From Escherichia phage EC121, in the sequence record NC_054909.1: a stretch of DNA of 64,000 nucleotides. The stretch is one strand, 5' to 3'. Of this stretch, positions 9,895 through 39,893 are shown one piece after another; the first letter of the stretch is position 1; every line of letters begins with the position of its first letter. A model generated the notes under the pieces. It saw nothing but the letters and a program-made list of their open reading frames with translations. It was not told where the DNA came from and made no database searches. Position numbers and translations under genes: made by a program.

Positions 9895-10365
9895 TTAATC
9901 ATGTTTCCACACCCCATCGGTATTTGACCAAAGTCGCTGATTATCTGATCCTCGCCACAGCTTTTTAGTCGGAAGATTTTTCTCATACTTCCCATCAATA
10001 ATAACATCAACATATTTAAGCATTTCTAGTTGTTTAATATCTTCAAACTTATATCCTGTCCACAACCAAATGCTTTTATTTGGATAAAGATTTTTTACTG
10101 TTTGAACAATGCAATGAACAGCATCTCGGTTATCAGGATAGAGAGGGTCTCCTCCAGTTATAGTTAATCCTTCTATATAATCGTTATTCAAACATTCAAT
10201 TAATTGTTCCAGCGTTTCACCAGTGAATGGAACACCATTTCTAGCATTCCATGTTGATTTATTATAACACCCTTCGCATTTATGCAAACAACCTGTAACG
10301 AAAAGAACGACCCTGCAACCAGGGCCATTCACAAAGCAGCACGGGTATATTCTGTCATAATTCAT
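9895..10365 (-). CDS. nrdG: anaerobic ribonucleotide reductase activase NrdG (radical SAM)
   Basis: CxxxCxxC motif CLHKCEGC; 156 aa from ATG at 10365. Confidence 0.9.
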   Translation of the reverse strand: MNYDRIYPCCFVNGPGCRVVLFVTGCLHKCEGCYNKSTWNARNGVPFTGETLEQLIECLNNDYIEGLTITGGDPLYPDNRDAVHCIVQTVKNLYPNKSIWLWTGYKFEDIKQLEMLKYVDVIIDGKYEKNLPTKKLWRGSDNQRLWSNTDGVWKHD

Positions 10366-11192
10366 AATAATATCCAATTTTTCCAAGCTTCATCAGTAGA
10401 ATTACAGCGTTTTAGTATAAGATGTCTAGAAACTTTTATGGCATTTGAGCACTTTTTAATTGAATCATATTTAATACCGTCAACTGAAACGGTTTTGCTA
10501 GTTGGAGAAATTTTTCCATACATTGGATTTTTTGAACCAACTTGAAGTCCTTTTAAAGCTTTTGAAAGCTTTTGTCTAGATTCCAATGACATGGGAGAAT
10601 TCTTTTTACCTTCAATAATTCGCTTGCGATGAAGTTCGCGTTCTTCTTCACTCAAAGAATTGTAATATTTTTTAACACCGTTTGATATAGATAATTTATC
10701 TTTCTCAGACCGCTCTCCAGCTAATTTACTTCTAACATCTTTTCGCTTCATAGCTATGCTTACGGCTTTATTTAAATTTGCTTGATGCTCTGGCGTACGT
10801 TTATATTTCTTTAAAGCACGTGAAATAGCTATTTTAGTTTCTTCTGTTCTCTTTTTACCTTTATTTGCTAAACTATTTTTGCGGCGATGTTCAAGTGTCT
10901 GTTCATAGGCAGTTCCACCTTTTCCACCAGGTTTAATATTATATGTATTTTCTTTTAGACAATACTCTTCGGTTACAAGTTCAGCTTCTTTATCATACAT
11001 TTGTTTTTCATTATCAAAAACATGTAAAATTTCTTTATTAAAATTTTTTCTACCATATTTTAATAAAGCGGCACGAATCAATGTTCCTGACCCCATATAA
11101 CCGTCATTTATGTTATCGGTGCTATGCGCACCGATATATTCCTTTGAATTAATTATATTTGTTATTTTATAAATTATATAATACCTATGCAT
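10362..11192 (-). CDS. free-standing GIY-YIG homing endonuclease
   Basis: N-terminal YIIYKITN...KEYIGA GIY-YIG module, C-terminal NUMOD3-like basic repeats; overlaps nrdD stop and nrdG start. Confidence 0.8.
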   Translation of the reverse strand: MHRYYIIYKITNIINSKEYIGAHSTDNINDGYMGSGTLIRAALLKYGRKNFNKEILHVFDNEKQMYDKEAELVTEEYCLKENTYNIKPGGKGGTAYEQTLEHRRKNSLANKGKKRTEETKIAISRALKKYKRTPEHQANLNKAVSIAMKRKDVRSKLAGERSEKDKLSISNGVKKYYNSLSEEERELHRKRIIEGKKNSPMSLESRQKLSKALKGLQVGSKNPMYGKISPTSKTVSVDGIKYDSIKKCSNAIKVSRHLILKRCNSTDEAWKNWILL

Positions 11193-13002
11193 GTTTTACT
11201 CGTTTTACCATTTCTTTCATTTTACCTAAATTCCATGGAACAACGCTAGGAGTTCCAAGATATCCGCATGTTCTTCTTATTGTGTTCATCTTTTTAGGAT
11301 CAGTTTCTCCACAAATAGAACAAACAAACCCGTTTTCAGTAGGAGTCATTTCATGGGTACTTCCGCATGTAAAACACTTATCTACTGGCATGTTAACACC
11401 AAAATAATCTAAATGTTGTGCAGCATAATCCCACACGGCCTCAAGACCTTTTAAGTTATTTTTCATATCAGGAAGTTCAACATAAGAAATGTGACCACCT
11501 GTCGCAATGAAATGATATGGCGCTTCACGAGAAATCTTTTCAAACGGAGTAACATTTTCTTCTACTGAAACGTGGAAACTGTTAGTGTACCAGCCTTTAT
11601 CAGTAACATCCTTTACACTTCCATATTTTTCTGTATCAAGTTTACAGAAGCGATAGCAAAGGTTTTCAGCAGGAGTAGAATACAAGCTAAAAGCAAAACC
11701 AGTTCTTTCAGTCCACTGTTTAAGATGAGCATTCATTTTAGTTAAAATTTCTTGTCCAATATCACGACCGACAAGAATATTCAATTCGTGAATACCAATG
11801 TATCCCAAAGACACTGAACTTCTACCGTTTTTAAATAACTCAATTATGTCGTCATCAGGTTTAAGACGAACCCCAAATGCACCTTCTTGGTAAAGAATAG
11901 GAGCAACAGTAGCTTTAACTCCTTTTAAGGAACTAATTCTACACATCAAAGCTTCAAAACACAAATCCATTCGCTCATTGAATAATTCAGTAAATTTCTG
12001 TTCATTGAATTGTGTTCCAATATAAGAATCTAACGCAATACGAGGAAGATTCAGTGTTACAACACCAAGATTATTACGTCCATCAAGAATTTCATTACCA
12101 GTCGAATCTTTCCATACGCTCAAGAAACTACGGCAACCCATTGGAGAAACAGGAACAGATGAACCAGTGATAGCTTTATTGTTCTTAGCTGAAATAATAT
12201 CAGGATACATCCTTTTGCTTGCACACTCTAAAGCAAGCTGCTTAATATCATAGTTCGGATCGTCTTTATAAAGATTAACACCTTCTTCAACGAACATAAC
12301 AAGTTTAGGGAAAATAGGAGTTATCCCATCACGACCAAGACCTTTAATACGATTTTTCAGAATTGCTTTCTGAATCATTCGTTCAGTCCAGTCAGTTCCC
12401 GTACCAAATGTAATTGTTACAAAGGGTGTTTGTCCGTTTGAACTAAAGAGAGTATTTACTTCATATTCATAAGCTTGGAATGCATCGTATACATCTTTTT
12501 CTGTTTTAGATTGAGCATAATTCAATGCATCAGCGATTTGCCATTTTTCTGCATCCTCAATATGTTTTGCATAGGTGCGTTTAACATAAGGAGAAAGTAC
12601 TTTATCTACATTAGCAAAAGTCGTTCCGCCGTATTGGTGGGAAGCAACCTGTGCAGTAATTTGTGCCATAATTGCAGTAGCAACGCCAATTGATTTAGGA
12701 GTTTCAATCTGCGCATTACCTAGCTTAAATCCGTTCTCAAGCATTCCTTTTAAATCTACTAAACAACAATTAGTAAATGGAAGAGCAGGGGAATAATCAA
12801 TATCATGGAAATGAATAATTCCGCTTTCATGCGCTTTCATAATAAAAGACGGGACCATATTTTTGGCAATGTGTTTAGACACAATACCAGCCATAAGGTC
12901 CCGTTGAGTTGGAAAAACACGAGAATCTTTATTAGCATTCTCGTTCAAAAGGTCTTTATTAGTTTTATGAATCAATCCTTCAATTTCTTTTTCAATTGTC
13001 AT
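11185..13002 (-). CDS. nrdD: anaerobic ribonucleoside-triphosphate reductase NrdD (glycyl radical enzyme), uninterrupted
   Basis: 605 aa; C-terminal glycyl radical motif RRTCGYLG and Zn-ribbon CFTCG...CSIC. Confidence 0.95.
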   Translation of the reverse strand: MTIEKEIEGLIHKTNKDLLNENANKDSRVFPTQRDLMAGIVSKHIAKNMVPSFIMKAHESGIIHFHDIDYSPALPFTNCCLVDLKGMLENGFKLGNAQIETPKSIGVATAIMAQITAQVASHQYGGTTFANVDKVLSPYVKRTYAKHIEDAEKWQIADALNYAQSKTEKDVYDAFQAYEYEVNTLFSSNGQTPFVTITFGTGTDWTERMIQKAILKNRIKGLGRDGITPIFPKLVMFVEEGVNLYKDDPNYDIKQLALECASKRMYPDIISAKNNKAITGSSVPVSPMGCRSFLSVWKDSTGNEILDGRNNLGVVTLNLPRIALDSYIGTQFNEQKFTELFNERMDLCFEALMCRISSLKGVKATVAPILYQEGAFGVRLKPDDDIIELFKNGRSSVSLGYIGIHELNILVGRDIGQEILTKMNAHLKQWTERTGFAFSLYSTPAENLCYRFCKLDTEKYGSVKDVTDKGWYTNSFHVSVEENVTPFEKISREAPYHFIATGGHISYVELPDMKNNLKGLEAVWDYAAQHLDYFGVNMPVDKCFTCGSTHEMTPTENGFVCSICGETDPKKMNTIRRTCGYLGTPSVVPWNLGKMKEMVKRVKHA

Positions 13003-29847: not shown

Positions 29848-30025
29848 CTAAACGAATAGGTTCATGAATGCCATATCCTTGAACAGAAATTTCTGTCGTA
29901 GGATAAATTCCATCAATATCACCCATATTCCAGGCTTCATTAAATTGTTGTTCGCCTGAATTACTAAACCACTCGGCGAAAGCATTTAGCACATCTTTAG
30001 AACCTTCAATAATTATCTTTGCCAT
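29804..30025 (-). CDS. hypothetical protein (73 aa)
   Basis: ATG overlaps stop of GrcA-like gene. Confidence 0.5.
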   Translation of the reverse strand: MAKIIIEGSKDVLNAFAEWFSNSGEQQFNEAWNMGDIDGIYPTTEISVQGYGIHEPIRLVEYDLCTGEEVKYD

Positions 30026-30387
30026 TACAAACTCTCAGTAAAGGTACGAGCGATAACGTCGCGCTGCTGTTCCGGAGTCAGAGAGTTAAAGCGAACTGCA
30101 TAACCGGATACACGGATGGTCAGCTGCGGATATTTTTCCGGATGCTTAACTGCATCTTCCAGAGTTTCACGACGCAGAACGTTTACGTTCAGGTGTTGAC
30201 CACCTTCAATTTTAACTGTAGGTTGTGTTTCAATTTCAATTTCACGGGCATGCAAACCGTAGAAAATTTCTGGGTCTACAAAAGAGTCCTCTTTAAAGGT
30301 TTTAGAGACAATAATTCGTGCTTGAATACCATCTTCAAAATAAATAGTACCTTTATGTGTGCCTTCAAGAATTTGATATGCTTTCAT
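30025..30387 (-). CDS. autonomous glycyl radical cofactor (GrcA/YfiD-like)
   Basis: C-terminal 60 aa incl. glycyl radical motif RVSGYAVRF and ending TFTESL as recalled for E. coli GrcA; N-terminus MKAYQILEG. Confidence 0.8.
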
Positions 30388-30394
30388 ATAAACC

Positions 30395-30724
30395 TCAATT
30401 AGAAAATAAATTTATCCAAGATTGTTCTTTAATTAAAAATGGCTCAGAATCATATGCCATTAAACTTTGGGTGATTAGTCCTTTAAAAGGTCCATCAATA
30501 AATTCCATGGTAAAATATGGAATTTTATTCATTAACTGCGCGTTAGGAGCAGTGCACAAAACTCTGCATCCTTTGAATACGCCTTTTTGTAATTTGTATT
30601 GCTTGGGATAAAATTCGCTCAAAATGTTATTATTTGCCAAAATTTCAAAATGATTCACCAATTTATTTTTAATAGTTTTTGGCGAAAAATAAAGATATTC
30701 GAAAAGCTGTGTGTCTGTCATCAT
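30395..30724 (-). CDS. hypothetical protein (109 aa)
   Basis: minus-strand ORF. Confidence 0.5.
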
Positions 30725-31311
30725 TGCATTCCAATCACAAAAAATTGAGGACGAACTGTTTCACCTGTTTCAGCATTATAGCTTCGACAACAGTGTTGTA
30801 CCGTTTTAATATGGATATTGTAAATCTTATCCATATCAGGAGCTTTAATAGGTTCGTCAATTATGTACAAGATACGAGAAAGCGATAACCCACGGAATTT
30901 ATGACCTTCATTACCGATAAAACTACGGACAGAATCAGTAAATAAACGGAATCGAATATCATCATTAGAATAACGCGAAAATTCCTTTTTAATGTTATTT
31001 GCAGAAATTTTAGCGTAAGCTGAAGTATTAGAAAGAACAATAACTGTTCCGCCATCATACAACCAATTAGCAGCAAAGTTAGTCACAGCAATTGATTTAC
31101 CGGATTGACGTCCACCATCTAGTCGAAGTGTACAATACTGTTTAAGTAAGTCTTCAAATGGCGGGATATATTCGTTTTTACAAATTTCTTCTACTCTAGC
31201 ATCAGAATGGTGTGTAAAAGCATTCATCAGGGATAGATAAGGACCGGTTAAAAATGTTCTCATTTTATTCTCTCTAAGTTTGGGCCATTCCGTGGCGCAT
31301 GAATTGTCCAT
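30721..31311 (-). CDS. P-loop NTPase-like protein (196 aa)
   Basis: Walker A GGRQSGKS and Walker B ILYIIDEP. Confidence 0.55.
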   Translation of the reverse strand: MDNSCATEWPKLRENKMRTFLTGPYLSLMNAFTHHSDARVEEICKNEYIPPFEDLLKQYCTLRLDGGRQSGKSIAVTNFAANWLYDGGTVIVLSNTSAYAKISANNIKKEFSRYSNDDIRFRLFTDSVRSFIGNEGHKFRGLSLSRILYIIDEPIKAPDMDKIYNIHIKTVQHCCRSYNAETGETVRPQFFVIGMQ

Positions 31312-31404
31312 TTCTGCATTTACCCATTACCGCACTTGGGCTCGACCTTATCACAGGTTGGCGGGAATCCCTCACAGAATCATGAGGTCCAGGTTGTTCC
31401 CATA

Positions 31405-31878
31405 TTATTTGAACGATTTAACGTACTGAATAGAACCCTTACTATTCACGAAAGCGATTTTACCATTTTTGTTATACATGGTAGCAGTACGTTGATAACC
31501 ATAAGTTTGTTTACCAGATTGATAACCAACTAATGCAAAATTATCTTCACCCATTTTATTCTGCTTAGCGCGAATGCGTTCATGGCCATGTGCCATAAGA
31601 ACCTTAGCATCACCCGTTGCAATGGATCTACGAGTTTTTTCATCTTCAACTGTATTAACAAAGTCGTCAAATGAATCAAATTTAGCATGAGATTTATTAT
31701 ACAGTTTTCCATCTACTGCATAATTATATCCTTGTACATCCATCTCAACTTCTGTACCGTCATCCAATACAGCAGTGATTTTCTGTCCTTTTTTAAATTT
31801 CAAAAGATCAGTAAAAGATTCAGCAATAATTTGAGAATTAATAGCTGCTTCAGTAATAAATTCTTGATATGTTTTCAT
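31405..31878 (-). CDS. capsid internal protein (IPIII-like)
   Basis: N-terminal capsid targeting sequence MKTYQEFITE. Confidence 0.65.
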   Translation of the reverse strand: MKTYQEFITEAAINSQIIAESFTDLLKFKKGQKITAVLDDGTEVEMDVQGYNYAVDGKLYNKSHAKFDSFDDFVNTVEDEKTRRSIATGDAKVLMAHGHERIRAKQNKMGEDNFALVGYQSGKQTYGYQRTATMYNKNGKIAFVNSKGSIQYVKSFK

Positions 31879-31894
31879 GTGTATCCTTTAATTT

Positions 31895-32212
31895 TTATTC
31901 TTTAGGGAAGTTTTTAGAATATGCATCATAAAGCTTATTTCCAATACGGCGGAAAACTCTAGCCGCAAAACGATTTTCTGGGTTTTTAATCATGATTTGC
32001 ATCATATAAGTACCCGCGTCAGAAAGAGCTTCTTCATAGTACCCGTTAATTTCTTTAAGAGTCCTACGTTTACCACCAGGACCATCAACAGTGATTTTCC
32101 ATTTACCTGTAGAAGTGCGACTTGGCGGCTCAACTTGTTCAATCCAGATATAACCGCCTTCTACACGTTGTCCTGCAGCAGATTCTGCAATAAATTCTTT
32201 ATACGTTTTCAT
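31895..32212 (-). CDS. capsid internal protein (IPII-like)
   Basis: N-terminal capsid targeting sequence MKTYKEFIAE. Confidence 0.65.
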   Translation of the reverse strand: MKTYKEFIAESAAGQRVEGGYIWIEQVEPPSRTSTGKWKITVDGPGGKRRTLKEINGYYEEALSDAGTYMMQIMIKNPENRFAARVFRRIGNKLYDAYSKNFPKE

Positions 32213-32249
32213 GTGTTTCCTTTAAATATTTTAATTAGTAACTGTGAAT

Positions 32250-32278
32250 ATACTATCACAGTTCTAGGAGAAAGTAAA
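32250..32278 (-). promoter_or_regulatory. sigma70-type early promoter
   Basis: GTTTACT -35, TAGTAT -10. Confidence 0.4.
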
Positions 32279-32283
32279 CAACT

Positions 32284-32814
<531 letters not shown>

Positions 32815-36310: not shown

Positions 36311-36784
36311 TTATTTGATTTGTTTAGCAGACCAAATGCGGTCTTTAATAATTTTTTGGATGTCTTCAACATACCCAAGAGAGTGAGCATGTGGGTTATC
36401 TTTGAAACTATAAGCACGAGCCAGTTTTTGGCCTTCAGTTTTGATTACTAAAAGCTCTTTAAGAATAGCTTCATATTTGGAGATAATTCCTTTAACAATA
36501 TTTTTCTCTTGTGCGACTTTAGGATCTGCTTTAGGAGCAGGTTTACCTGAAGCCTTTGCAAAAGCAGCGCCAGTAGCAACTAAACTTTTCCAGGCCATAC
36601 TAACTGCATTTCCCGTAAATCCTTCCGCTTTCATGTCGCGTGCGAACTGGAATCGCGATTCATCAGAAGCATCTTTGTAAGAATATTTACCCGCTGCAAT
36701 GGCTGCTTTTGCGACAGCTTGAATTTCGGTGCTAGATGCTTCATTTAACACCGCTTCATTTAAAAATTGAGTATATGATTTCAT
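36311..36784 (-). CDS. putative capsid-targeted internal protein (157 aa)
   Basis: N-terminus MKSYTQFLNE resembles capsid targeting sequence with LxE cleavage motif; own late promoter. Confidence 0.6.
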   Translation of the reverse strand: MKSYTQFLNEAVLNEASSTEIQAVAKAAIAAGKYSYKDASDESRFQFARDMKAEGFTGNAVSMAWKSLVATGAAFAKASGKPAPKADPKVAQEKNIVKGIISKYEAILKELLVIKTEGQKLARAYSFKDNPHAHSLGYVEDIQKIIKDRIWSAKQIK

Positions 36785-36824: not shown

Positions 36825-36832
36825 TATTTATA
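36825..36832 (-). promoter_or_regulatory. late promoter box TATAAATA
   Basis: plus-strand TATTTATA about 40 nt upstream of ATG at 36784. Confidence 0.45.
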
Positions 36833-37538: not shown

Positions 37539-37614
37539 TGGTCGAGGCAGTAGGGATCGAACCTACGACCCAGGACTTAGAAGGTCCTTGCTCTTCCTTC
37601 TGAGCTATGCCCCG
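37539..37614 (-). tRNA. tRNA-Arg (anticodon TCT), CCA encoded
   Basis: manual cloverleaf: acceptor CGGGGCA/TGCCTCG, anticodon loop CTTCTAA, T-arm GTAGG-TTCGATC-CCTAC. Confidence 0.75.
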
Positions 37615-37618
37615 TAAT

Positions 37619-37694
37619 TGGGGTGACCGATGGGAGTCGAACCCATGACTACGAGAATCACAATCTCGAGTTCTACCAACTGAACTACGGCCAC
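37619..37694 (-). tRNA. tRNA-His (anticodon GTG), CCA encoded, no encoded G-1
   Basis: acceptor GTGGCCG/CGGTCAC, discriminator C, anticodon stem CGAGA/TCTCG loop TTGTGAT. Confidence 0.65.
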
Positions 37695-37808
37695 ATTAAT
37701 ACCTACTCCAACAATCATGATGTCTTCACACGAAATTAAGAGAAGAGTGATCAGTTCAACCCCTATAATCGCGTCAAGTAGATATTAATGTGACAGTTGT
37801 CACAAATT

Positions 37809-37883
37809 TGGCGGACGTGATAGGATTCGAACCTATAACCAATCGCTTAACAGGCGATCGCTCTGCCATTGAGCTACACATCC
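37809..37883 (-). tRNA. tRNA-Asn (anticodon GTT), CCA encoded
   Basis: acceptor GGATGTG/CACGTCC, anticodon loop CTGTTAA, T-loop TTCGAAT. Confidence 0.7.
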
Positions 37884-37887
37884 AAAT

Positions 37888-37974
37888 TGGTGGGGAGTGA
37901 TGGAGTCGAACCACCCGAGTCGCAATGACAATGAATTTACAGTCCACACCGCTACCTCTACGGGATAACTCCCC
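37888..37974 (-). tRNA. tRNA-Tyr (anticodon GTA), long variable arm, CCA encoded
   Basis: acceptor GGGGAGT/ACTCCCC, anticodon loop CTGTAAA, 87 nt type II. Confidence 0.6.
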
Positions 37975-37981
37975 CTTAATT

Positions 37982-38056
37982 TGGTGGCCCTGGGTGGAAT
38001 TGAACCACCATCTGGCGATTATGAGTCGCTTGCTTGAACCTTCCAGCTACAGGGCC
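37982..38056 (-). tRNA. tRNA with CAT anticodon (Ile-lysidine type or Met), CCA encoded
   Basis: acceptor GGCCCTG/CAGGGCC, anticodon arm CGACTCATAATCGC as in Ile2-type tRNAs. Confidence 0.7.
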
Positions 38057-38057
38057 T

Positions 38058-38133
38058 TGGTGCTGATTGACGGAATCGAACCGCCGACATCCTCATTACA
38101 AGTGAGGTGCTCTACCTACTGAGCTAAATCAGC
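38058..38133 (-). tRNA. tRNA-Thr (anticodon TGT), CCA encoded
   Basis: acceptor GCTGATT/AATCAGC, anticodon stem CCTCA/TGAGG loop CTTGTAA. Confidence 0.75.
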
Positions 38134-38138
38134 AAAAC

Positions 38139-38228
38139 TGGCGGAGGCGATAGGATTTGAACCTATGAGTCGCCGGAGCGACTGCCGGTTTTCAAGACCG
38201 GTGCATTAAACCACTCTGCCACGCCTCC
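38139..38228 (-). tRNA. tRNA-Ser (anticodon TGA), long variable arm, CCA encoded
   Basis: acceptor GGAGGCG/CGCCTCC, anticodon stem CCGGT/ACCGG loop CTTGAAA, 90 nt. Confidence 0.75.
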
Positions 38229-38230
38229 AG

Positions 38231-38304
38231 TCTCCATACAAGGATTTGAACCTACGACATTCTGCTCCCAAAGCAGACGCTCTACCAAACTGAGCTACAC
38301 GGAG
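38231..38304 (-). tRNA. tRNA-Pro (anticodon TGG), no encoded CCA, 2 nt from tRNA-Ser
   Basis: anticodon stem TCTGC/GCAGA loop TTTGGGA; acceptor CTCCGTG/TATGGAG with wobble pairs. Confidence 0.65.
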
Positions 38305-38314
38305 TAAATTAAAT

Positions 38315-38388
<74 letters not shown>

Positions 38389-38393
38389 AAATT

Positions 38394-38480
38394 TGGTGCG
38401 AGAAGTGGGACTCGAACCCACAAGGAAATAATTCCGCAGCATTTTAAGTGCTGTGCCTTTACCAATTTGACCATTCTCGC
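38394..38480 (-). tRNA. tRNA-Leu (anticodon TAA), long variable arm, CCA encoded
   Basis: acceptor GCGAGAA/TTCTCGC, anticodon stem CAGCA/TGCTG loop CTTAAAA. Confidence 0.75.
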
Positions 38481-38481
38481 G

Positions 38482-38554
38482 CTGGGAATAAAGGACTCGA
38501 ACCTTTGCATCTAGCAGTCAAAGTGCTATGCCTTACCAACTTGGCTAATTCCCA
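38482..38554 (-). tRNA. tRNA-Gln (anticodon TTG), no encoded CCA, 1 nt from tRNA-Leu
   Basis: acceptor TGGGAAT/ATTCCCA, anticodon stem TAGCA/TGCTA loop CTTTGAC. Confidence 0.7.
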
Positions 38555-39608: not shown

Positions 39609-39893
39609 TTACAAAAGATTTTTAGCAATAATTTTAAGCTGAGCTACTGAAATATGCTTGGCTTTAAACAAAGCAGTTTCTTCAGCAGGGGAGATAATGA
39701 TTGTGGCACCATCTTTCTTAGCGGACCATCCATCACCCAGGTAAACAGTACCTTTAACTTCTTCACCATCAACCAGGCTAATCATCGGTTTACCTTCACG
39801 TCCTTTGTTTGCTTTAATAACTTCAGAAGTAAGGGTCGCTTCAGTCAAAGTAGAAGCGTTAGTGGTTGAAGTGAATTCTTGATAAGTTTTCAT
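39609..39893 (-). CDS. ipI: internal protein I (capsid-packaged, injected)
   Basis: 94 aa; capsid targeting sequence MKTYQEF; position between tRNAs and 57B as in T4. Confidence 0.75.
   Translation of the reverse strand: MKTYQEFTSTTNASTLTEATLTSEVIKANKGREGKPMISLVDGEEVKGTVYLGDGWSAKKDGATIIISPAEETALFKAKHISVAQLKIIAKNLL

Follow-up and report, generated by a model that had tools for sequence, protein, structure and literature searches.

Two proteins have been validated as spare parts for oxygen-cleaved PFL, YfiD (GrcA) of Escherichia coli and Y06I of phage T4, and both form a complex with the cleaved enzyme, according to the review PMC8683613. By the account that PMC8683613 gives of Wagner et al. 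2001, PFL-AE reportedly activates Y06I, which then reconstitutes oxygen-cleaved PFL. Residues 61-127 of YfiD are a copy of residues 693-759 of PFL, and its residues 1-60 are required for binding cleaved PFL and for efficient activation; this N-terminal half, needed for the binding, is described as disordered in the free protein (PMC8683613). Y06I is the product of T4 gene vs.6 (UniProt P13316). The gene itself is thus nothing new, the T4 homolog of GrcA having been biochemically characterised in 2001 and annotated in hundreds of phage records. Here we describe vs.6 in a stretch of 64,000 nucleotides from Escherichia phage EC121 (NC_054909.1), referred to below as the window, where the two halves of the gene differ in origin.

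Gene vs.6 and its glycyl radical domain

The gene lies on the minus strand at 30025..30387 and is an open reading frame of 120 aa, running from ATG to TAA, whose translation contains RVSGYAVRF and ends in TFTESL. A preliminary description of this DNA had correctly reported the reading frame with both motifs, leaving the strand unstated, and had rightly noted that its start, MKAYQILEG, is unlike the N-terminus of E. coli GrcA. A Shine-Dalgarno sequence read from the DNA, GAGG (30393..30396, minus strand), is situated 5 nt upstream of the ATG and overlaps the stop codon of vs.7, and the ATG of the next gene overlaps the TAA of vs.6 (TAATG). The neighbours are unrelated small genes and vs.6 has its own Shine-Dalgarno and stop, so it is a stand-alone reading frame; its product is a small protein without the catalytic barrel of glycyl radical enzymes, as in GrcA/YfiD. 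The radical motif RVSGYAVRF occupies residues 92-100 (30088..30114, minus strand), as placed by the sequence and by alignments to 6OWR and 1CM5/1H16, and the codon of the radical glycine G95, equivalent to G102 of GrcA and G734 of PFL, is found at 30103-30105.

PHROG 1209 matched vs.6 over its full length (E=5e-63). The closest DNA matches were Tequatroviruses (wV7, 98.8%), annotated vs.6/grcA; RB51 names the ortholog vs.6, and many phage records name it grcA. At the protein level vs.6 is 99.2% identical to its counterparts in T4 and T2. T4 Y06I occupies the same position in the vs.3-vs.8 array, is likewise 120 aa long and shares the mosaic structure described below, and the two proteins agree at 119/120 residues, T4 having Pro54 where the window has Thr54. 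We are confident that the reading frame is the Tequatrovirus ortholog of T4 vs.6/Y06I, a mosaic gene that very probably encodes a cytoplasmic GrcA-type spare part for PFL, that is, a phage-borne autonomous glycyl radical cofactor.

The likeness to GrcA held up strongly on alignment. PDB 6OWR, E. coli GrcA, matched vs.6 with E=4.6e-42, and residues 58-120 aligned end to end with the PFL C-terminus (residues 697-759, E=4.8e-26), RVSGYAVRF included, while Pfam Gly_radical (PF01228) was matched with E=2.2e-18. Residues 61-120 are 100% identical in protein to residues 68-127 of E. coli GrcA and ~78% identical to the PFL C-terminus, and a direct BLASTP comparison with E. coli GrcA gave 74/100 identities in an alignment that reaches back to residue 22. 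The protein thus has a PFL-type radical domain, with the RVSGYAVRF loop and the C-terminal helix, of the kind that characterises GrcA/YfiD. Against NCBIfam TIGR04365 (spare_glycyl, the GrcA equivalog) vs.6 scored 154.6 bits over residues 20-120 only, and since this falls below the curated cutoff of 170 we regard it as a member of a diverged phage subfamily (PHROG 1209) and not as a strict equivalog. Like vs.6, E. coli GrcA/YfiD is a stand-alone glycyl radical protein of ~14 kDa, and the mechanism of the two is presumed to be the same; however, vs.6 is seven residues shorter, its N-terminal half is AT-rich and only ~30% identical, and its gene belongs to a lytic phage, where early/middle transcripts give rise to the protein. 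The C-terminal glycyl radical domain of PflB (residues 693-759; PDB 1H16, 2PFL) aligns with vs.6 over residues 697-759, but the whole 10-stranded barrel and the catalytic pair Cys418/Cys419 of PflB are absent from it, and the label 'pyruvate formate-lyase', common in phage records of vs.6, is a misnomer.

Host DNA in the 3′ half of vs.6

Gene nt 179-353 of vs.6 (residues 60-118; 30035..30209, minus strand), a patch of 175 nt covering the structured radical domain, showed 100% DNA identity to E. coli grcA. The 5′ half (codons 1-59; 30211..30387, minus strand) is of phage type, has 33% GC and agrees with E. coli grcA at ~50% of its DNA; the GC content accordingly changes from 0.33 in the 5′ half to 0.49 in the patch. 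Two conserved blocks, GAAGGNGGTCA on the 5′ side and CAGCGCGACGTTATCGCTCGTAC on the 3′ side, bound the tract. Over the same stretch E. coli grcA is ~85% identical to that of Salmonella, 88% to that of K. pneumoniae and 92% to that of Citrobacter; the K. pneumoniae gene was taken from a PLSDB entry that is labelled a plasmid but is really a chromosome, the genome-contig scan containing no K. pneumoniae, and K. aerogenes was left out for its frameshifted record.

The same structure recurs widely. In 635 phage records the identity to E. coli grcA was 95% or more, and in each of them it was confined to query nt 200-384. The tail of K. pneumoniae grcA was matched at 95-99% by 106 phage records, mostly of Klebsiella phages. 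Those that we examined include Jiaodavirus phages, which infect Klebsiella and have, at the very junction seen in vs.6, a patch resembling K. pneumoniae (97-98%). In Slopekvirus-like phages the protein encoded by the tail is identical although the DNA identity is only 83%, and protein constraint therefore cannot explain the DNA match. Between Tequatrovirus and Mosigvirus we counted 10 fixed differences in the head and 0 in the patch (p=0.0017). Within Jiaodavirus the heads are 95.5-98.9% identical to one another and the patches only 88.7-93.2%, in a comparison limited to in-register segments, as indels in the flanks invalidate an ungapped one. E. coli is polymorphic at nt 204, and each of its two alleles is present among the phages, in a distribution incongruent with head relatedness; the T4 patch has T at this position and that of the window has A, corresponding to different E. 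coli grcA alleles. Codon 118 is GAG in the window and GAA in T4 and E. coli, and the exact match of T4 runs 3 nt further. The best match of the KP179 and PKO111 patches was K. pneumoniae at 88-90%, and donors were not found for these two. Further genomes were added individually from the phage records of GenBank, and a search of IMG/VR with a degenerate junction pattern returned only six Tequatro/Mosig contigs that were already in the set.

Judged by its sequence, the 3′ half of vs.6 is host E. coli DNA, which has apparently been copied from the host repeatedly. The exact E. coli patch, the Klebsiella-like patch at the same junction and the occurrence of both alleles in phages together point to recurrent gene conversion from host to phage, and we consider it probable that T-even phages keep their copy of the GrcA radical domain matched to their current host by such conversion from its chromosome. 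The 5′ half would be old AT-rich phage sequence, and the 3′ half, encoding the plug for which a fit to both host PFL and PflA is essential, would have been overwritten by host grcA through homologous recombination between the two conserved blocks, repeatedly so in T-even genera infecting E. coli and in those infecting Klebsiella. The phage-specific N-terminal recognition half, on this account of recurrent conversion, would never have been replaced. This would imply at least four or five independent events, to account for two alleles of E. coli within Tequatrovirus, for Mosigvirus and for three or more patch types within Jiaodavirus. A single acquisition that was then spread by recombination between phages could explain part of the Tequatrovirus/Mosigvirus pattern.

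An assembly or contamination artefact was ruled out as the origin of the patch, the same junction being present in >600 independent phage genomes. Transfer from phage to host was ruled out as well, because E. coli grcA stands 85-92% from other enterobacterial grcA genes, Citrobacter being closest, a divergence which fits a vertically inherited host gene, and the GC content of the patch is host-like. A search of the literature for yfiD together with T4 and horizontal transfer returned nothing relevant.

Spare-part function and its alternatives

The analogy with T4 suggests how vs.6 may act. Host PflB would be cut by oxygen at its radical glycine G734, the N-terminal half of vs.6 would bind the cleaved enzyme, and its C-terminal domain (residues ~54-120, with radical glycine G95) would fill the place of the lost PFL C-terminus. 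Host PflA, the PFL activase, would then turn vs.6 to its radical form, and conversion of pyruvate to acetyl-CoA and formate would be restored. What is reported for T4 Y06I, that PFL-AE activates it and that it rescues cleaved PFL, should carry over to the 99.2%-identical vs.6 of the window; the homology, the domain type, the N-terminal alignment and the mosaic structure of vs.6 come directly from the present analysis. As for the benefit to the phage, we infer that T4-type phages, which shut off host gene expression, may bring a spare part of their own, and that fermentative energy and the supply of acetyl-CoA would thereby be kept up under oxygen-fluctuating, gut-like conditions. How the conversions come about and what selective value they have is likewise inferred. 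The spare-part reading of the preliminary description, in short, stands for the GrcA/YfiD likeness, already established for T4 Y06I, and finds no support for the two additions made to it, a capsid tag and a link with NrdD, which are taken up below.

It might be argued that vs.6 is instead a decoy or regulator that competes for PflA with host GrcA or PFL, or caps cleaved PFL, with the outcome that pyruvate/formate metabolism is redirected or shut down and not restored. The half that recognises cleaved PFL is indeed strongly diverged from that of the host, at ~30% identity, the score of vs.6 lies below the GrcA equivalog cutoff, and the searchable literature yielded no in vivo data on vs.6 mutants, a deletion phenotype included. 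However, the radical glycine and the entire catalytic plug are identical to those of the host, the opposite of what a dead decoy would lead one to expect, and Y06I is reported to restore PFL function (PMC8683613). We thus hold a decoy role to be very improbable.

The other partner that suggests itself is encoded by the phage. The window contains NrdD, the anaerobic RNR (11185..13002, minus strand; Pfam NRDD, E=2.6e-171), with the tail RRTCGYLG, and its activase NrdG (9895..10365, minus strand; CxxxCxxC, Pfam Fer4_12 with E=1.2e-48, and Radical_SAM), both mentioned here for context only. Pfam thus confirmed the presence of the two genes, from which the preliminary description had gone on to suggest that the radical domain of vs.6 might serve NrdD; vs.6 would then stand in for the C-terminus that NrdD loses to oxygen, and its activase would be phage NrdG. 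The two genes are ~17-20 kb from vs.6 in the window, both NrdD and vs.6 match Pfam Gly_radical, a part for vs.6 in nucleotide metabolism has been the subject of speculation in earlier comparative work (PMC1524935), and the review deems it conceivable that other glycyl radical enzymes have spare parts as well (PMC8683613). The C-terminal radical domain of T4 NrdD (G580) is, moreover, of the same Pfam class and has the same kind of oxygen sensitivity as vs.6. But pairwise similarity between the two was not detectable: BLASTP of vs.6 against the NrdD of the window gave E=6, with the aligned bits away from the NrdD radical site, the motif is RVSGYAVRF of the PFL/GrcA type in vs.6 and RRTCGYLG in NrdD, the activase of NrdD is NrdG, and the structure matches of vs.6 at E<=1e-3 included no NrdD chain. 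By sequence vs.6 is not a duplicate of the C-terminal radical domain of NrdD, and the implied link of vs.6 with NrdD/NrdG is not supported. The 100% identity of residues 61-120 to E. coli GrcA, with ~78% to the PFL C-terminus, speaks for a different partner, as does the reported action of T4 Y06I with PFL and PFL-AE (PMC8683613), and repeated replacement of the radical domain by host grcA DNA makes sense only with a host-protein partner. A spare part for NrdD is accordingly very unlikely.

The N-terminal half of vs.6 and the capsid-targeting reading

T4 internal proteins (IPI, IPII and IPIII) reportedly carry a capsid targeting sequence (CTS; Mullaney and Black, 1996). The window encodes three proteins of this kind, all on the minus strand: an Ip4-like protein with the CTS MKTYQEFITE (31405..31878; Pfam DUF7412, E=5.7e-96; PHROG 3155, 'internal virion protein'; annotated Ip4 in RB51), an internal-protein-like product of 105 aa with the CTS MKTYKEFIAE (31895..32212; PHROG 3966; 5′ DNA common to other ip genes) and IPI, with the N-terminus MKTYQEFTST (39609..39893; Pfam IPI_T4, PF11634, E=3.5e-51). 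The first eight codons of vs.6, MKAYQILE (30364..30387, minus strand), had been read in the preliminary description as resembling such a targeting tag. If they were a T4-type CTS, vs.6 would enter the prohead core, be cut by gp21 after Glu8, packaged and injected, and the spare part would be available from the first seconds of infection. The resemblance is real as a string match, because of the 220 window ORFs with 40 aa or more only four start with MK.Y[QK], namely vs.6 and the three genuine internal-protein genes. Residues M1, K2, Y4 and Q5 are common to vs.6 and the consensus MKTYQEFIAE, and I6-L7-E8 conforms to the (L/I)-x-E gp21 site, so that vs.6, like T4 IPI/IPII/IPIII, has MK-x-Y-Q with (I/L)-x-E in its first 10 residues; an [LI]xE within residues 4-20 occurs in 20/90 window ORFs of at least 80 aa, hence is uninformative. 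The determinants of the CTS are mainly residues 4 and 7, which in vs.6 are Tyr and a hydrophobic Leu, and MKAYQILEG is invariant across Tequatro-, Mosig- and Jiaodavirus. Furthermore, vs.6 lies 1-2 kb from ip genes, downstream of them on the same strand, without a strong promoter-like site between: scans for late promoters (TATAAATA), sigma-70-like sites, MotA boxes and terminators found no site parting vs.6 from the ip transcription unit, and they do not for that reason discriminate between the hypotheses.

Descent nevertheless accounts for the same residues. We aligned 21 phage and 9 bacterial GrcA proteins with MAFFT, and five N-terminal motifs of vs.6, KAYQIL, GTIYF, ARIIVSK, EDS.V and REIEIE, aligned with KGIQIT, NSFWLL, ARC.VAKA, AEDEVV and YREVPVE of bacteria, so codons 1-59 are homologous to the N-terminal recognition half of GrcA. 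In the columns of MKAYQILE bacteria have MI[TK]GIQIT, jumbo phages MTIKAIQIL, the RB49 group MEFKAIQIM and T5-like phages MKAYQNLK, which explains K2, Q5 and I6 by descent. T5-like phages share MKAYQ, followed by NLKSG without a cleavage motif, and they are not known to have a T4-type internal-protein system. I6-L7-E8 is kept in Tequatro-, Mosig-, Jiaoda- and Slopek-like phages, but at residue 8 Karamvirus has Asn, the RB49 group Lys and others Ser or Arg, though gp21 is core to T4-like phages. Matching vs.6 to a propeptide of the MKTYQEFIAE type requires a 2-residue deletion, and Leu stands in place of Phe7. The three ip genes resemble one another in a 5′ DNA stretch (AAAGGA.ACACATGAAAAC.TAT.AAGAATT), the recombination cassette of polymorphic IP loci; the 5′ DNA of vs.6 and its upstream region are unrelated to it, sharing the M-K-x-Y codons only. 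The kinetics differ too, for published T4 omics class vs.6, which is expressed during infection, as 'early RNA / middle protein' and ipI-III as 'early RNA / late protein'. A summary of mass spectrometry and N-terminal sequencing of T4 heads (13 sites, 9 head proteins) makes no mention of vs.6, and the searchable literature on virion proteomes yielded no paper linking GrcA or vs.6 to virions. A cut at Glu8 would also strip a conserved motif from the half needed for binding cleaved PFL.

On the strength of this alignment, we interpret MKAYQILE as the conserved N-terminal motif of the GrcA family, with no more than a likeness to a capsid tag, and the best explanation has the vs.6 protein cytoplasmic and not a packaged internal protein. 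With the motif derived from GrcA, Glu8 variable, the 5′ DNA unrelated and the kinetics of the middle class, the capsid-targeting N-terminus was not substantiated; packaging as capsid cargo is highly unlikely, and additional packaging through the CTS-like start is far less likely than recurrent conversion.

Neither the attractive idea that a radical cofactor is packaged and injected nor the supposed connection with NrdD is thus supported, and the 3′ half of vs.6 is documented as host DNA, host-specific in genera infecting E. coli and Klebsiella. Recurrent conversion, if true, would let one see directly, as is rarely possible, homologous recombination still under way from host to lytic phage on a metabolic gene. 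If recurrent conversion holds, vs.6 would be a natural reporter of the rate of recombination with the host chromosome in strictly lytic phages that degrade host DNA, and would show which region of a spare part must fit host enzyme and activase together.

Identity of vs.6 as a PFL-type spare part

The vs.6 ORF, read from the sequence at 30025-30387 on the minus strand, encodes 120 residues, is preceded by a Shine-Dalgarno GAGG 5 nt 5' of its start (30393-30396, minus strand) and has a TAA stop that overlaps with the start codon of the gene that follows (TAATG). The strings RVSGYAVRF, TFTESL and MKAYQILEG, which the preliminary description quoted for this interval, are all found in it. The phage is a Tequatrovirus with phage wV7 as its closest DNA relative (98.8%); the 1.9-kb vs.6 neighbourhood is matched in 837 phage records, and the colinear gene of RB51 is annotated as vs.6 inside the array regB, vs.3-vs.8, Ip4, denV, e. 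The protein is 99.2% identical to those of T4 and T2, the T4 ortholog being Y06I (UniProt P13316). It matched Pfam Gly_radical far above chance (E=2.2e-18) and, in the PDB sequence search, both E. coli GrcA (6OWR, E=4.6e-42) and residues 697-759 of pyruvate formate-lyase (PFL; E=4.8e-26), so that the likeness to GrcA/YfiD was confirmed by alignment. PHROG 1209 spans its full length, while the NCBIfam equivalog TIGR04365 aligns with residues 20-120 only and scores 154.6 bits, just below the cutoff of 170, because the N-terminal half has diverged. The GrcA reading is correct and already in the literature; as first stated, the finding was known. Many phage GenBank records call the 120-aa protein 'pyruvate formate-lyase', 'formate acetyltransferase' or '2-ketobutyrate formate-lyase', enzymes of which it represents only the last ~63 residues, and one record names the neighbours of vs.6 'endoribonuclease'.

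As recounted in PMC8683613 with reference to Wagner et al. 2001 (pmid 11444864), E. coli YfiD and T4 Y06I are the two validated 'spare part' proteins; the PFL activase installs their glycyl radical, and in complex with oxygen-cleaved PFL they make the enzyme functional again. YfiD residues 61-127 duplicate PFL residues 693-759, and tight binding to cleaved PFL as well as efficient activation require the first 60 residues, which show no order while the protein is free (PMC8683613).

NrdD (11185-13002) and NrdG (9895-10365) are indeed encoded in the window, both on the minus strand, as had been reported, but the link drawn from them to vs.6 found no support. BLASTP of vs.6 against the window's NrdD gave E=6, with aligned fragments away from the radical site, no NrdD chain occurs among its 33 PDB sequence matches, and the NrdD tail reads RRTCGYLG where vs.6 carries the PFL/GrcA loop RVSGYAVRF; a spare part for NrdD is unsupported. 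The two genes lie ~17-20 kb from vs.6, a closeness that just reflects the gene order of T4. The space between nrdG and nrdD is filled by a 276-aa ORF (10362-11192, minus strand) that overlaps each of them by a few bases. It is a free-standing homing-endonuclease-like gene with a NUMOD3 motif, and the I-TevI DNA-binding domain matched it at 21.1 bits, below the cutoff of 27.

The N-terminus and the internal-protein genes

The preliminary description had likened the N-terminus to the targeting tag of internal proteins, the capsid targeting sequence (CTS), and considered packaging and injection possible. As a string match the likeness is real: among 220 window ORFs of at least 40 aa only four start with MK.Y[QK], namely vs.6 and three true internal-protein genes (the Ip4-like gene at 31405-31878, PHROG 'internal virion protein'; 31895-32212; and the IPI gene at 39609-39893, by Pfam). 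When 21 phage and 9 bacterial proteins were aligned, however, MKAYQILE fell in register with the N-termini of other GrcA proteins, which read MITGIQITK in Enterobacteria, MIKGIQITQ/K in Pasteurellaceae and Edwardsiella, MTIKAIQILR/S in ~350-kb jumbo phages, MEFKAIQIMK in the RB49 group, MKAIQIIE/D in metagenomic ~152-kb phages and MKAYQNLKSG in T5-like phages. The N-terminal half is thus homologous to that of GrcA, and K2, Q5 and I6 are inherited from a GrcA motif, [KT]-[AG]-[IY]-Q-I-x.

That vs.6 is packaged by way of a CTS is very improbable. The same MKAYQ begins the protein of T5-like phages, where no (L/I)xE is present; these phages are not known to have an internal-protein system of the T4 type. 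Glu8, the putative P1 residue of the gp21 protease, gives way to Asn in Karamvirus (MNAYQILNG), to Lys in the RB49 group and to Ser, Arg or Asp in other sequences, although gp21 belongs to the T4-like core genome (review of Black's work). Targeting depends on CTS residues 4 and 7 and processing on residues 8 and 10 (same review); vs.6 has Tyr4, as the T4 internal proteins do, but differs from them in Leu7 and in an I-L-E two residues out of register. The three ip genes have a common Shine-Dalgarno sequence and first codons, AAAGGA.ACACATGAAAAC.TAT.AAGAATT, of which the 5' DNA of vs.6 has only what M-K-x-Y dictates. In time-resolved omics of T4, vs.6 is 'early RNA / middle protein', grouped with vs.1, vs.3, vs.4 and nudE, unlike ipI, ipII and ipIII, which are 'early RNA / late protein'. 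A mass spectrometry summary of T4 heads (13 cleavage sites in 9 proteins) makes no mention of vs.6, and the searchable literature yielded no report of vs.6 or GrcA in virions. Loss of residues 1-8 would, moreover, take out a conserved motif in the half that recognises cleaved PFL.

A 157-aa ORF at 36311-36784 (minus strand) starts MKSYTQFLNE, which fits the CTS pattern (Y4, F7, L8-N-E10) more closely than vs.6 does, and has the late-promoter consensus TATAAATA just upstream (36825-36832, minus strand); it has no Pfam match and no similarity to the Ip4-like protein, and is a candidate for a further internal protein. The interval 31405-32284, which lies between vs.8 and lysozyme e, is the known hyperplastic internal-protein locus. 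RB51 has Ip4-denV-e there; this phage carries a 105-aa IP-like gene (MKTYKEFIAE) besides the Ip4-like one, and neither the locus nor the set of window ORFs of at least 100 aa showed a denV ORF. A GC-rich stretch (~31264-31404, about 0.44-0.52 GC in surroundings of roughly 35%) lies between the Ip4-like gene and the start of vs.8, a start that is only probable as the PHROG match begins at residue 19; Rfam at gathering threshold gave no match there. MotA-box-like WWTGCTTYA occurs 32 times in the window against 11.6 expected, a count reached in 0 of 100 shuffles and in keeping with a large number of T4 middle promoters; going upstream from vs.6 on the same strand, the first one is found at 32414-32422, ahead of the ip genes. 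Ten tRNA genes cluster at 37542-38554 (minus strand), the T4-type tRNA region.

Host DNA in the 3' half of vs.6

All of 5,426 complete E. coli genomes matched the vs.6 gene in blastn at 95-99% identity (best 98.4%), and the matches covered gene nt 179-363 only. In pairwise alignment with E. coli grcA, identity is ~50% at first and then complete over 175 nt (gene nt 179-353; window 30035-30209, minus strand); past this run, the final three codons hold three synonymous differences. GC rises from 0.33 in the 5' half of the gene to 0.49 in the 3' half. In YfiD numbering the patch covers residues 67-125, in essence the structured plug domain. Protein constraint as the cause of the identity was ruled out by Slopekvirus-like phages, whose tail protein is identical while their DNA is only 83% identical to that of E. 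coli. In this interval E. coli grcA shares only 85%, 88% and 92% identity with its counterparts in Salmonella, K. pneumoniae and Citrobacter, against 100% with the patch, which is therefore E. coli DNA gained after these lineages split. Since E. coli grcA sits at 85-92% from its enterobacterial relatives, as would be expected of a vertically inherited host gene, and the GC of the patch is host-like, the transfer ran from host to phage.

Probable recurrent replacement by the resident host's grcA

Among phage GenBank records, E. coli grcA found 635 at 95% identity or more, in Tequatrovirus and Mosigvirus and always over query nt 200-384 only. The K. pneumoniae grcA tail found 106 at 95-99%, the top matches being almost all Klebsiella phages and those examined (KPV15, Nispero) Jiaodavirus; KPV15, KP17 and Nispero are 97-98% identical to it. 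The Salmonella tail found nothing above 90%. Both patch groups share the 5' junction AAAATT|GAAGG, and the tract is flanked by two blocks conserved in all sequences. The 3' boundary varies; in Shfl2 identity to E. coli resumes past a single G (nt 354) up to the stop codon.

Tequatrovirus and Mosigvirus differ by 10 fixed differences in the 177-nt head, the phage-type 5' half, and by none in the 177-nt patch (Fisher p=0.0017). Jiaodavirus has the opposite pattern: between Nispero, KP179 and PKO111, identity is 95.5-98.9% in the head but only 88.7-93.2% in the patch, although all three encode the same protein there. Comparing head with patch pair by pair gave p values between 0.096 and 0.01, and a value of 0.0004 for PKO111 and Nispero once the in-register upstream flank is joined to the head. 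For the KP179 and PKO111 patches no donor was found (best match 88-90%). In KPV15 (NC_055715.1, 69233-70399) the 5' half is out of frame beside an intact K. pneumoniae-like patch, either a pseudogene or a sequencing error, and RefSeq annotates GrcA as a 51-aa C-terminal fragment only. At the site that corresponds to gene nt 204, E. coli itself has two alleles (A in strain FDAARGOS_497, T in strain SK1144). T4 agrees with SK1144 at every base over 178 nt, and the A allele is found in the window phage and in Shfl2, although the window head is closer to that of T4 (98.3%) than to that of Shfl2 (95.5%).

One acquisition spread by phage-phage recombination could explain part of the Tequatrovirus/Mosigvirus pattern. 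Taken together, the junctions, the host-specific patches, the head/patch contrasts, the variable 3' boundary and the two E. coli alleles favour the view that the grcA of the resident host has replaced the radical domain repeatedly, through homologous recombination. No mention of a vs.6 mosaic was found in the searchable literature, which leaves out key older papers; this host-specific patch is the sole part that a specialist might follow up.

Once host gene expression has been shut off in the T4 manner, the phage would make its own spare part, from early/middle transcripts, and conversion of pyruvate to acetyl-CoA could thereby outlast oxygen pulses while the phage infects fermenting cells. 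The C-terminal plug would have to fit host PFL and its activase, PflA, and may be kept identical to the host's or simply end up so, the recognition half meanwhile evolving, presumably, on the phage side. The patterns described here suggest recurrent host-to-phage gene conversion of the 3' half of vs.6.
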